DNA of 64,000 nucleotides from Escherichia coli (lineage in GTDB: Bacteria > Pseudomonadota > Gammaproteobacteria > Enterobacterales > Enterobacteriaceae): assembly GCF_013315695.1 (NCBI RefSeq), contig NZ_CP054353.1. The stretch is one strand, 5' to 3'. The notes beneath the pieces were generated by a model that was given only the letters and a program-made list of their open reading frames with translations, was not told the origin of the DNA and ran no database searches. Of this stretch, positions 16,463 to 20,202 are shown piece after piece (position 1 is the first letter of the stretch; every line of letters begins with the position of its first letter). A program made the translations under genes and the position numbers.

Positions 16463-16534
16463 CATCATCAATGAGTTATCTTTTACCACATCAATTATGT
16501 TAGCTATAGCATACAAAATCACTTGACCGATATG

Positions 16535-16548
16535 TTAGTCATGGCTAA
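16535..16548. promoter_or_regulatory. Third copy of the DicA-operator-like palindrome (TTAGTCATGGCTAA) upstream of ydfA/dicB operon
   Basis: Same palindrome family as in the dicA-dicC intergenic region. Confidence 0.5.
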
Positions 16549-16628
16549 TCTTGTTTGCATCAACACACCGCACGGTGTTCTCAGCAAACAGTTCCGCTAC
16601 CCCAGCGTTAAGGGGAAATGAGGTCAGC

Positions 16629-16943: not shown

Positions 16944-17162
16944 ATGCAGAAACGAGAACCCGTCATCATCGCGCCAGACTATACCGATGATGAACTTTAT
17001 GAGTGGATGCGCCAGAAAATTAATGCAGCGCAGGATCTGAAATGGGCTAATGAAGCCAGGGCTAAGCAGGCTGAAAATCTGTTCTCTCTGGAGCAGGATA
17101 TCACCAGGCTGGAAAAAGCAGCGGCATTAAGCATTGCCAGAATGATTACATACCCGCGTTAA
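16944..17162 (+). CDS. ydfC: YdfC (72 aa)
   Basis: ORF MQKREPVIIAPDYTDDELYEWMRQKINAAQDLKWANEARAK... Confidence 0.75.
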   Translation: MQKREPVIIAPDYTDDELYEWMRQKINAAQDLKWANEARAKQAENLFSLEQDITRLEKAAALSIARMITYPR

Positions 17163-17502
17163 TAGCTAACCAACGAAGCTAAGGTTGGTAATTAAGGAGT
17201 TCTCCACGGGTGAGGTGGAGTGCGTGCGCCGGACACGGGTGAGCATCCGGCACTGACAGTTTACTGAAAGGATATTTCCATGAAAAGTCAGACCATAACG
17301 CGAAAGCGCACGGCGAGGTAGCTGGTTCATAGATAGCCTGTCGTTAAATTTTCGTCGACCGTGCGCTTCCGGTTGTGGCAACCCGCGAAATGGCGCGGCG
17401 GTAAGTATGGCGGGGTTATTCCTTCCCCGTTGAGGACACCGGGTTGTCAGGTTGACCATACGCTTAAGTGACAACCCCGCTGCAACGCCCTCTGTTATCA
17501 AT

Positions 17503-17557
17503 TTTCTGGTGACGTTTGGCGGTATCAGTTTTACTCCGTGACTGCTCTGCCGCCCTT
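17503..17557 (+). ncRNA. dicF: DicF small regulatory RNA (anti-ftsZ)
   Basis: Sequence TTTCTGGTGACGTTTGGCGGTATCAGTTTTACTCCGTGACTGCTCTGCCGCCC followed by TTTTT matches DicF as I remember it; directly upstream of dicB. Confidence 0.8.
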
Positions 17558-17729
17558 TTTAAAGTGAATTTTGTGATGTGGTGAATGCGGCTGAGCGCAC
17601 GCGGAACAGTTAAAACCAAAAACAGTGTTATGGGTGGATTCTCTGTATCCGGCGTTAATTGTTAACTGGTTAACGTCACCTGGAGGCACCAGGCACTGCA
17701 TCACAAAATTCATTGTTGAGGACGCGATA

Positions 17730-17918
17730 ATGAAAACGTTATTACCAAACGTTAATACGTCTGAAGGTTGTTTTGAAATTGGTGTCACTATCAGTAACCC
17801 AGTATTTACTGAAGATGCCATTAACAAGAGAAAACAAGAACGGGAGCTATTAAATAAAATATGCATTGTTTCAATGCTGGCTCGTTTACGTCTGATGCCA
17901 AAAGGATGTGCACAATGA
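17730..17918 (+). CDS. dicB: DicB cell-division inhibitor (62 aa)
   Basis: Internal start MKTLLPNVNTSEGCFEIGVTISNPVFTEDAINKRKQERELLNKICIVSMLARLRLMPKGCAQ in ORF 17625..17918. Confidence 0.85.
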   Translation: MKTLLPNVNTSEGCFEIGVTISNPVFTEDAINKRKQERELLNKICIVSMLARLRLMPKGCAQ

Positions 17919-18162: not shown

Positions 18163-19326
18163 TTGTTCATCCTTAAATCTGTCATGAGGTTAAAACAAAT
18201 GAGTAAAGTCTTTATTTGCGCCGCTATTCCTGACGAACTGGCAACAAGGGAAGAAGGCGCTGTGGCTGTAGCCACAGCCATTGAAGCTGGCGACGAACGC
18301 CGTGCTCGAGCAAAATTTCACTGGCAATTCCTGGAACATTATCCGGCTGCTCAGGACTGCGCTTATAAATTTATTGTCTGCGAGGATAAACCTGGCATAC
18401 CCCGCCCTGCCCTCGATTCATGGGATGCTGAATATATGCAGGAAAACCGCTGGGATGAGGAGTCTGCTTCTTTTGTCCCGGTTGAGACTGAATCCGATCC
18501 GATGAACGTCACTTTTGACAAGCTGGCCCCTGAAGTACAGAACGCTGTCATGGTTAAGTTCGACACATGTGAAAACATCACCGTTGATATGGTTATTAGC
18601 GCACAGGAATTGTTGCAGGAAGACATGGCAACATTCGACGGACATATCGTTGAAGCGTTGATGAAAATGCCAGAAGTTAACGCCATGTATCCGGAGCTTA
18701 AGCTGCATGCCATCGGGTGGGTTAAGCATAAATGTAAGCCTGGTGCCAAATGGCCCGAAATTCAGGCAGAGATGCGCATCTGGAAAAAACGTCGCGAAGG
18801 TGAACGTAAGGAAACCGGAAAATACACGTCTGTTATTGATCTCGCCCGCGCCAGAACCAATCAACAGCACAGTGAAAATTCAACAGGAAAAATCAGCCCG
18901 GTCATTGCTGCCATTCATCGCGAATACAAGCAGACATGGAAAACACTGGATGACGAACTGGCCTACGCTCTCTGGCCTGGTGATGTGGATGCCGGAAACA
19001 TTGACGGCAGCATCCATCGCTGGGCAAAAAATGAAGTTATCGACAACGACCGCGAAGACTGGAAGCGTATCTCGGCATCAATGCGCAAACAGCCTGATGC
19101 CCTTCGCTACGACCGCCAAACTATTTTTGGCCTTGTCCGTGAGCGTCCGATCGACATTCACAAAGATCCCGTAGCACTGAACAAATATATCTGCGAATAC
19201 CTGACGACAAAGGGCGTGTTTGAGAATGAAGAAACAGACCTGGGCACTGTTGATGTTCTCCAGTCATCAGAAACACAAACTGATGCAGTGGAAACTGAGT
19301 ATTTCCAGACATCTGTTATCACTTAA
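18163..19326 (+). pseudogene. ydfE: ydfE-like prophage gene whose 3-prime end runs into IS2 (C-terminus replaced by IS-derived codons)
   Basis: ORF continues 27 bp past the IS2 boundary at 19300 before stopping; true start uncertain (candidates at 18199 or 18403). Confidence 0.55.
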
Positions 19327-20202
19327 CCCATTACAAGCCCGCTGCCGCAGATATTCCCGTGGCGAGCGATAACCCAGCGCACTATGCGGATGCCATTCGT
19401 TATAATGCTCGAACGCCTCTGCAAGGTTCTTTGCTGCCGTTAACCCGTCTGGTTTGGGCATGATACTGATGTAGTCACGCTTTATCGTTTTCACGAAGCT
19501 CTCTGCTATTCCGTTACTCTCCGGACTCCGCACCGCCGTGTTCTTCGGTTCAAGTCCCAACATCCGGGCGAACTGGCGTGTTTCATTAGCCCGGTAGCAT
19601 GAACCATTATCCGTCAGCCACTCCACTGGAGACGACGGAAGATCGTTGCCGAAGCGGCGTTCCACCGCTCCCAGCATGACGTCCTGTACTGTTTCACTGT
19701 TGAAGCCGCCGGTAGTGACCGCCCAGTGCAGTGCCTCACGATCACTGCAGTCCAGCGCGAACGTGACACGCAGTCTCTCTCCGTTATCACAGCAGAACTC
19801 GAACCCGTCAGAGCACCATCGCTGATTGCTTTCTTTCACGGCCACTCTGCCTGTATGTGCCCGTTTCGATGGCGGTACAGCAGGTTTTCGCTCAAGCAAC
19901 AGCGCATTCTGGCGCATGATCCGGTAAACACGTTTGGCATTGATCGCAGGCATACCATCAAGTTCTGCCTGTCTGCGAAGCAGCGCCCATACCCGACGAT
20001 AACCATACGTGGGCAGCTCTCCGATAACATGGTGTATACGGAGAAGCACATCCGTATCATCAGTGTGACGACTGCGGCGGCCATCCATCCAGTCATCGGT
20101 TCGTCTGAGAATGACGTGCAACTGCGCACGCGACACCCGGAGACAACGGCTGACTAAGCTTACTCCCCATCCCCGGGCAATAAGGGCGCGTGCGCTATCC
20201 AC
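19267..20202 (-). CDS. insD: IS2 transposase OrfB (InsD) with ~10-codon C-terminal extension into flanking DNA
   Basis: 311-aa ORF; body matches InsD through ...[11 protein letters not shown], then continues [10 protein letters not shown] because the normal stop lies in the missing IS2 terminus. Confidence 0.85.

Follow-up and report, generated by a model that had tools for sequence, protein, structure and literature searches.

A conserved structured RNA of approximately 115 nucleotides (nt) lies in the dicBF operon of a Qin-like prophage of Escherichia coli. The element, here called the core, occupies positions 17372 to 17486 of the 64,000 nt stretch of contig NZ_CP054353.1 (assembly GCF_013315695.1) that was analysed, hereafter the window. 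It is part of the untranslated leader between ydfC and dicF, the gene of the small RNA (sRNA) DicF. Compensatory base changes in five of its six helices identify the fold. In phages without N the core comes after an early promoter and ahead of the first strong terminator in a long operon, and we tentatively favour a role as a cis-acting antiterminator. All features described are on the + strand unless stated otherwise.

The dicBF operon has been a classic locus since the 1980s, and its papers refer to the stretch of roughly 340 nt ahead of dicF only as a long untranslated region. A 190-nt form of DicF, the RNA that contains the core, and an RNase III site are already known. In the dicBF literature, a scope outside which lie the P1 genome paper and King 2011, the core was nowhere found described as a family of conserved structured RNAs.

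Structure and conservation of the core

The untranslated segment (17163 to 17502) starts directly after ydfC (the annotated YdfC ends at 17162) and precedes DicF (17504 to 17555). It is composed of three modules: variable hairpins, a hairpin processed by RNase III, and the core. An earlier sequence-only reading had described this segment, with the right coordinates and context, as GC-rich, highly self-complementary and free of credible open reading frames (ORFs). The last point was borne out, as the only long frame is an antisense ORF of 111 amino acids (aa) at 17166 to 17501. Of 13 distinct full-length homologues, 3 keep this frame open and the others have it broken by indels of 1-2 nt, and a coding function is rejected. 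The enrichment in GC is real but modest in size (53.5% in the segment and 47% in the flanks; 58% in the core and 47.8% in the whole window). Not foreseen was the modularity. The conserved unit is only 17372 to 17486, and it is common to phages P1 and P7 and several unrelated lambdoid immunity types.

As modelled, the core is a closing helix around two adjacent hairpin domains, which are joined by a loop-loop helix of 6 base pairs (bp). The closing helix, P1, pairs 17372-17379 with 17479-17486 and shows U-A to U·G, G·U to G-C, and C-G to U·G to U-A exchanges. Hairpin P1a (17383 to 17398; CCGCG AAAUGG CGCGG, 17383-17387 with 17394-17398) is paired in 98-99% of alignment cells; because it is nearly invariant it has no covariation support of its own. 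Helix D (17399-17402 with 17438-17441) changes from U-A to C-G in phage P7, and three of its four pairs are found in the minimum free energy (MFE) fold. Helix A, the kissing (pseudoknot) helix, pairs GUAUGG at 17405-17410 with CCAUAC at 17456-17461 and thereby connects the D/P2 domain and hairpin B through their loops. It is paired in 99.8% of cells and shows a U-A to C-G change in phage P1 as well as U·G intermediates. Hairpin P2 (17411 to 17429; 17411-17415 with 17425-17429) combines a hypervariable stem with a CU-rich loop. At least six different P2 stems occur and all of them pair (CGGGG/CCCCG, CUGGGG/CUCCAG, CCCGGG/CCCGGG, GCGGGG/CCUCGC, CUGGG/CCCAG, and CAGGGG/CCCCUG). Hairpin B (17443 to 17475; GUUGUCA/UGACAAC, 17443-17449 with 17469-17475) holds an invariant GGUUGA and the 3' strand of helix A in its loop. 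Its stem changes from U-A to C-G in phages P1 and P7, and from G-C to A-U in two Citrobacter-type sequences (L043 and L133).

These exchanges were read from 66-67 distinct core sequences taken from phage records, IMG/VR contigs and contigs of one genome per species. When aligned with MAFFT, 96.0% of pair cells are standard and 9 pairs change on both sides, a number that 1 of 500 shuffles reaches. The model-based alignment gives 96.7% and 10 pairs (0 of 500 shuffles). Sliding the partner strands as a control leaves 30-55% standard pairs. The numerous G·U pairs would turn into C·A mismatches if the opposite strand were the RNA, which shows that the RNA is on the + strand, in the sense of the operon. 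The core has 41 invariant columns, many of them unpaired, and a mean column identity of 81%. The support for each helix is good and not overwhelming, because diversity is low and cell counts are not event counts.

Our covariance model of the core (R1) finds a single copy in the window, at 155.5 bits. All nested helices (P1, P1a, D, P2 and B) also appear in the MFE fold computed from the window sequence by itself. The self-complementarity claimed in the sequence-only reading stands as structure supported by covariation across homologous prophages, but the folding energy is only weakly above chance. For the whole segment the z-score is -2.65 and 2 of 100 shuffles fold equally well; for the core alone it is -0.94. 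The real evidence for structure is covariation, and thermodynamics alone would not suffice. The three stems named in that reading are all present: 17228-17251 (GCCGGA...UCCGGC), 17301-17313 with 17359-17371 across 45 nt (inverted repeat I1), and 17441-17449 with 17469-17477 (inverted repeat I4).

Several other pairings were considered and rejected. A small hairpin, GUCA-GGU-UGAC, is disfavoured by covariation relative to the long-range helix B, as a U to C change in phage P1 is compensated at 17471, outside the small hairpin. The alternative helices I2 and I3 are present in the window and are not conserved in other variants. The P2 loop can pair with the J region after it in certain variants (UUCAU/AUGAA, UCCUU/GAGGA), but others do not allow this. 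The sequence GTTGAGGAC at 17429-17437, in the junction of the core (J region), is identical to the ribosome-binding region of dicB at 17715-17723. The J region was rejected as a mimic of this site because there is no covariation between the two; the junction varies between prophages and the dicB site does not.

No Rfam family matches the core, either in a search of 5 kb or with the core alone at E up to 10, in agreement with the suggestion that the segment may hold an unrecognised structured RNA. Rfam has to be judged as lacking the put family, because putL and putR of phage HK022 are not detected by it. A tRNA-like or transfer-messenger RNA-like core was rejected as ARAGORN finds nothing.

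Distribution and genomic settings

The segment matches in 4,325 of 5,426 complete E. coli genomes (~80%), at up to 8 places per genome, and is 97.9-99.7% identical to many E. coli chromosomes. Its parts are distributed differently among phage records, with BLAST breakpoints near 17183, 17205, 17223 and 17283 and a sharp one at 17372. In unrelated phages the matches begin and end at the edges of the core. Relative to the window, the core is 88-89% identical in the cdtI-type and 2H10-type lambdoid phages, 86% in vB_Apl-pPE4, 82% in Salmonella phage F1055, 82% in P7 and 78% in P1. The cores of lambdoid prophages and of P1/P7 are 77-82% identical, and the surrounding flanks are unrelated. Each phage record or locus has a single copy.

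In the genome scan, true members were found only in Escherichia, Citrobacter and Trabulsiella records, besides a few metagenome-assembled genomes (MAGs) labelled as other taxa, which are probably contaminated. The search pattern also matched a conserved coding motif, CAGGTTGACCATGCCGTACTC(C/G)GTGACAAT, in unrelated MAGs of Firmicutes and Chloroflexi (L134, L136 and L140). These were rejected as family members and are chance or protein-coding matches.

The genes around the core differ between phages. In P1 and P7 only ~40 nt separate the start of the core from that of the C1-controlled Pban transcript. A strong terminator (L001 2619-2638) and then T6 come next, and in P1 the length from promoter to terminator is about that of the long DicF species (~180 nt). 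Further downstream in both phages are tRNA-Asn, tRNA-Thr, tciABC, tRNA-Ile and ban, the last about 2.6 kb away, and no other promoter is annotated on that strand. In the cdtI-type phages a PL-like promoter (11/12 consensus matches) follows the cI terminator, and the core is found ~285 nt beyond this promoter with no ORF between. The complete genomes of phages mEp460 and Tritos have the order repressor, small ORFs, core, DicF, dicB, ydfD, exoVIII, xis and int, and their operon extends beyond the DicF terminator as far as int.

Nearly all variants have, 15-45 nt on from the core, a module made of a seed-like linker and a GGCGG...CCGCC-U5 terminator, which comes in several sequences. This terminator varies (several DicF-like types and one phage P1 type) and the core is constant. 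In one locus (L077) the core is directly followed by a gene, with neither sRNA nor terminator. The DicF model RF00039 has no match in phage P1 at E up to 10, so that the annotated 'dicF-like region' of P1 reflects similarity to the core and not to DicF.

A search for an N-like antiterminator among nine flanking proteins gave no match to a PHROG annotated as antitermination protein, and the canonical position of N is non-coding in one Stx2c phage. In vB_Apl-pPE4, filed as an Actinobacillus phage, a DicF-like unit is tandemly duplicated (L003 2596-2760). The region is close to E. coli lambdoid phages, and the Actinobacillus host assignment appears doubtful.

Exchange of cassettes in the P1 frame

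The two strands of helix P1 form a fixed frame around swapped cassettes. This is seen in 80 IMG/VR loci (L183-L262) with identical YfdP, as the locus search returned identical proteins only. All of these loci have the same flanks, down to the 8-nt strands GTTGTGGT and ACCACAAC, and the same terminator downstream. Enclosed by the strands is the core in 17 loci, an STnc100-like domain in roughly 55, and a third, unrelated insert of ~115 nt in 5. Examples of the frame are found in L186 (2143-2365) and in L185, about 400 nt upstream of yfdP. The STnc100-like domain of L186 scores 44.6 bits (E = 5e-7) relative to a gathering score of 47. The exchange of interiors within constant flanks shows that helix P1 is a real boundary and that the interior is an exchangeable cassette.

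The Rfam model of STnc100/PasD (RF02076), an sRNA of about 206 nt, has the layout of the core and DicF taken together. It shares with them the 8-bp closing frame, then AAU with a GC-rich hairpin after it, and further on the structured interior, the linker and the intrinsic terminator, and the STnc100-like domain replaces the core in the identical frame of related prophages. In contrast, the interior folds are unrelated. RF02076 has no match to 17355-17500 at E up to 10, and R1 has none in the STnc100-like region of the window. A recent preprint relates STnc100 to PasD; DicF is unmentioned there.

The STnc100-like region of the window is at 17553-17762, between the DicF terminator and dicB, where RF02076 reaches a sub-threshold 34.4 bits. 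It has its own closing stem, GUGAUGUGG...CUGCAUCAC, and a hairpin, CCUGG-AGGCA-CCAGG, that covaries with CCGGG/CCCGG elsewhere.

The RNase III hairpin and processing of DicF

Directly upstream of the core is a long hairpin at 17301 to 17371 (inverted repeat I1), with arms of 13 nt that are 92% complementary and extendable to about 17 bp. Its basal stem is conserved across homologues and the apical part is variable. Compensatory changes in the basal stem (GCGUACGG/CCGUACGC and CACAG/CUGUG) were judged by eye, with no formal count.

Primer extension has located an rnc-dependent RNase III cut at +813/814 from dicBp that yields the 190-nt DicF species, and an RNase E-dependent cut yields the 53-nt DicF (PMC10448788). 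A dicBp-like promoter, TTGACC-17-TAATCT, can be read at 16523-16551, which would place the transcription start at about 16557-16559. Counting from this start, and back from the terminator, would put the RNase III cut at about 17367-17371, at the 3' base of the hairpin and 1-5 nt before the core. A length of 190 nt back from about 17556-17561 likewise ends at about 17367-17372, the hairpin base and 5' edge of helix P1. The hairpin thus offers an extended duplex with a mapped rnc-dependent cut at its base. The suggestion that the segment is a processing substrate is correct and is already known biology.

DicF and its intrinsic terminator are at 17504 to 17556 (RF00039 match at 17504-17555, 76.7 bits, E = 2.8e-16). 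The single-stranded linker between core and DicF (17487 to 17503) differs between variants, and at its 3' edge is the 5' end of the 53-nt DicF, which depends on RNase E (PMC10448788).

Other repeats involve the same hairpin. The 8-mer AGCGCACG occurs in its 5' strand (17305-17312) and downstream of dicF (17594-17601). Its 3' strand (17360-17367) is complementary to both copies, so that a long-range helix bracketing the core and DicF is possible in read-through transcripts. A 17-nt direct repeat of 82% identity connects 17299-17315 (CGCGAAAGCGCACGGCG, 5' strand of the hairpin) and 17384-17400 (CGCGAAATGGCGCGGCG, P1a region). A long conserved stem, AACAGAGAAGAGCA...UGUUCUUCUCUGUU, lies directly after the DicF-like terminator in cdtI-type (L004 2676-2760) and F1055-type (L005 2700-2795) phages and may be another RNase III site.

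Relationship to known RNAs

The core constitutes the 5' two-thirds of the 190-nt DicF. It differs from the DicF family, which like the 53-nt sRNA spans only 17504-17556, in that it lies outside the model and is kept where no DicF is detected (phage P1).

The lambda-type nut sites and rrn boxA share with the core the position in the early-left operon. A boxA-like GTGCTCT(C/T) lies directly 5' of helix P1 in three of four lambdoid types (cdtI, F1055 and Trabulsiella). The strings at this position are TGCTCTCAG in cdtI, TGCTCTCTT in F1055, TGCTCTTTCC in Trabulsiella and TGCGCTTCC in the window. They were noticed after the fact, at one fixed position, in comparison with the boxA consensus (C/T)GCTCTT(T)A, and the motif is a lead only. 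The Trabulsiella TGCTCTTTCC can be set against the rrn boxA, TGCTCTTTAACAA. From its name, the core carrier mEp460 appears to belong to the mEp collection, which is described as Nus-dependent. Unlike nut sites, the core is adjoined by no boxB of a known type, and no N-like protein was found among the nine flanking proteins. The CCCUGAAAAGUCAGGG hairpin lies about 90 nt upstream and is degenerate in the window.

The lambda 6S RNA (PR'-tR') and StxS are similar in the order of promoter, short structured leader, strong terminator and long operon, and in having a terminated product that serves as an sRNA. For StxS, the terminated leader product is reported to act as an sRNA (PMC7547250). In these systems, in contrast to the core, antitermination is due to the Q protein, which acts at the promoter, and no requirement for the fold of the leader RNA is known. 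No Q-like factor is known for dicBp or Pban.

Possible functions of the core

Several readings of the core are considered, which are not mutually exclusive. The leading one, that the core is a put-like, factor-independent, cis-acting antiterminator, is put forward tentatively. With the same reserve, the core may represent a second RNA class, structurally unrelated to put, that binds the RNA polymerase of E. coli, either by itself or together with Nus factors recruited through the adjacent boxA-like motif, and confers resistance to terminators. The nascent core would act in cis on the host polymerase that is transcribing it, with or without the help of host Nus factors. The polymerase would be made resistant to the strong intrinsic terminator after the core, which is the DicF terminator here and the +180 terminator in the P1 ban leader. 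Some of the polymerases would then reach dicB, exo, xis and int, or in P1 the tRNA genes and ban. Transcripts that end at the terminator or are released by RNase III would form the ~190-nt RNA of core and DicF, to be trimmed by RNase E to the 53-nt DicF.

The put antiterminators suppress termination without phage proteins and depend on the zinc-binding domain of the beta' subunit of RNA polymerase. The core is found where put RNAs (HK022 putL and putR, and the putL-like RNA of HK639) are found: in an early operon, after a repressor-controlled promoter and before the first terminators, in phages without N. Like them it is a structured part of the nascent RNA with two adjacent stem domains and a single separating nucleotide (G17442), and the annotated size of the HK639 element, 126 nt, is similar. 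The only trans-acting factors common to the P1 ban leader and at least four lambdoid immunity types are host factors, and the core therefore most likely contacts host machinery. That the terminator sequence varies while the core is constant favours an action on polymerase over alternative base pairing. In P1 bac lysogens ban is constitutive with only Pban derepressed, which would imply read-through without other lytic phage proteins. The K-12 Qin prophage, which is without most phage genes, gives a transcript read as ydfABC-dicFB-ydfD, 1,608 nt long (PMC10448788). We count this transcript, which is read-through past the DicF terminator in a defective prophage, in favour of antitermination.

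A number of observations weigh on the other side. The core has no detectable homology to put RNAs. R1 has no match to putL and putR of HK022 or to the annotated putL-like RNA of HK639 (the put sites of L008 and L009), even with filters off. In Smith-Waterman comparisons of the core with put, 34-193 of 500 shuffles reach the score, and HK022 putL compared with HK639 putL is far above. A resemblance noticed by eye (CGAA-N-GGCGCG-N4-UAA...AUG) is not significant and was rejected. All ten put sequences known so far can be aligned with the put RNA of HK022, ~70 nt long (PMC9378689), and for this reason the core is presumably not among them. In addition, the core differs from put RNAs in its closing helix, extra hairpin and loop-loop kissing helix, in its single copy per phage record, and in Qin by its distance of about 815 nt from the promoter; antitermination by the core is putative. 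The boxA-like motif is degenerate and weak in the Qin type (GTGCGCTTCC) and absent in phage P1. Three unrelated folds in one P1 frame that all modify polymerase would not be parsimonious, and the STnc100-like domain of the window, which comes after the DicF terminator, indicates that a cassette of this kind need not be upstream of a terminator. Many transcripts, a substantial share, do end at the DicF terminator, as this is one of two reported routes to the DicF 3' end. Finally, the tie between the core and read-through is one that we infer.

The main rival, which we consider possible and somewhat less probable than antitermination, gives the core no effect on transcription and makes it the structured 5' part of a long sRNA derived from the leader (the 190-nt DicF; ~180 nt in P1). 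The core might set or shield the 5' end of this sRNA, direct RNase E to its cut site, or stabilise the precursor. The RNase III cut just before helix P1 makes the 190-nt species the sum of core and DicF, and this species persists in stationary phase and builds up upon inactivation of RNase E (PMC10448788). The promoter-terminator distance in phage P1 is about equal to it. The seed-like linker and terminator that almost always follow the core, and the STnc100 layout with its exchange in the same frame, fit this role. However, the characterised DicF is the 53-nt form without the core, and L077 keeps the core with a gene directly after it. Nor does this role explain the 41 invariant columns, the kissing helix and the identity between P1 and lambdoid cores, given that their sRNA parts are unrelated.

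It is less likely that the core is a trans-acting RNA in its own right, such as a decoy, a sponge, an anti-defence RNA or a platform for a host protein. Repressor-controlled early promoters make the core in all contexts, the known cuts on either side would free a fragment of about 135 nt, and the exchange of cassettes in one frame resembles the diversification of specificity or counter-defence modules. The P2 loop is always CU-rich despite the varying stem. Nevertheless, accumulation of free core RNA is without support and no host RNA or Rfam family offers a similarity to mimic. There is no evident target, as the match of the J region to the dicB ribosome-binding site does not covary.

A passive core is less likely again. 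The ydfC stop to dicB start is a 570-nt untranslated stretch, from which the core might keep Rho off, or the strands of helix P1 might be recombination joints around a functionless interior. The mosaic breakpoints fall exactly at these strands, and with the low sampled diversity part of the conservation may reflect recent spread. Against this, compensatory and wobble changes in five helices show selection for pairing in the interior, and the identity of the P1/P7 sequences is confined to the core to the exclusion of the flanks.

Least probable is a ligand-sensing or protein-sensing, riboswitch-like attenuator that decides whether the adjacent terminator forms: the multi-helix junction, pseudoknot and invariant unpaired bases have an aptamer-like complexity and the terminator follows directly, yet no conserved, mutually exclusive pairing of the 3' part of the core with the terminator was found, the P1 and lambdoid terminators are wholly different while the core is constant, helices I2 and I3 of the window are not conserved, and no phage protein is common to the P1 and lambdoid contexts.

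The variable leader and neighbouring features

The order of the operon in the window is dicA, the dicBp-like promoter, ydfA, ydfB, ydfC, the segment, DicF, the STnc100-like region, dicB and ydfD. Between ydfC and the RNase III hairpin, 17163 to 17300 is a mosaic of small hairpins, in place of which other prophages carry different ones. Hairpin H1 (17202 to 17220; CUCCAC/GUGGAG with loop GGGUGAG) belongs to the predicted fold and its position is occupied by different hairpins elsewhere. Hairpin H2 (17228 to 17251; GCCGGA/UCCGGC) has an invariant stem and a variable loop among Qin-type homologues. An exact 10-nt direct repeat, CACGGGTGAG, is found at 17205-17214 and 17234-17243, in the loops of these adjacent hairpins, with one copy in each. 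Alternative leaders of other prophages have two UGUUGGGGAA(U) hairpins at the position of this repeat. The recurrence of paired loops suggests paired binding sites for some factor.

Hairpin H3 (17253 to 17291; CUGAC...GUCAG) holds a degenerate copy of the CCCUGAAAAGUCAGGG hairpin. This hairpin occurs in most Qin-type leaders, with better copies in L020, L037, L064 and others; the copy of the window, at 17278-17294, reads CCAUGAAAAGUCAGACC. The CCCUGAAAAGUCAGGG hairpin has the string CCCUGAAAA in common with the lambda boxB.

Further downstream, a 311-aa ORF at 19267-20202 (- strand), after a ydfE-like ORF, interrupts the early-left operon. By its appearance it is a candidate insertion sequence (IS)-type transposase.

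Implications

If the core is an antiterminator it would be a second example of the control of RNA polymerase by RNA only. It would then be the missing early antiterminator of the N-less DicA/DicC-type lambdoid phages and of the P1 ban operon, and would account for their passage through the first terminator. In about 80% of E. coli genomes it would also determine how much DicF sRNA is made relative to DicB protein. If it is an sRNA domain, it would reveal, together with STnc100/PasD, a modular design of prophage sRNAs in which a framed cassette is followed by a seed and a terminator. Either way, the swapping of unrelated structured cassettes at one fixed 8-bp frame provides a testable case of RNA module shuffling.

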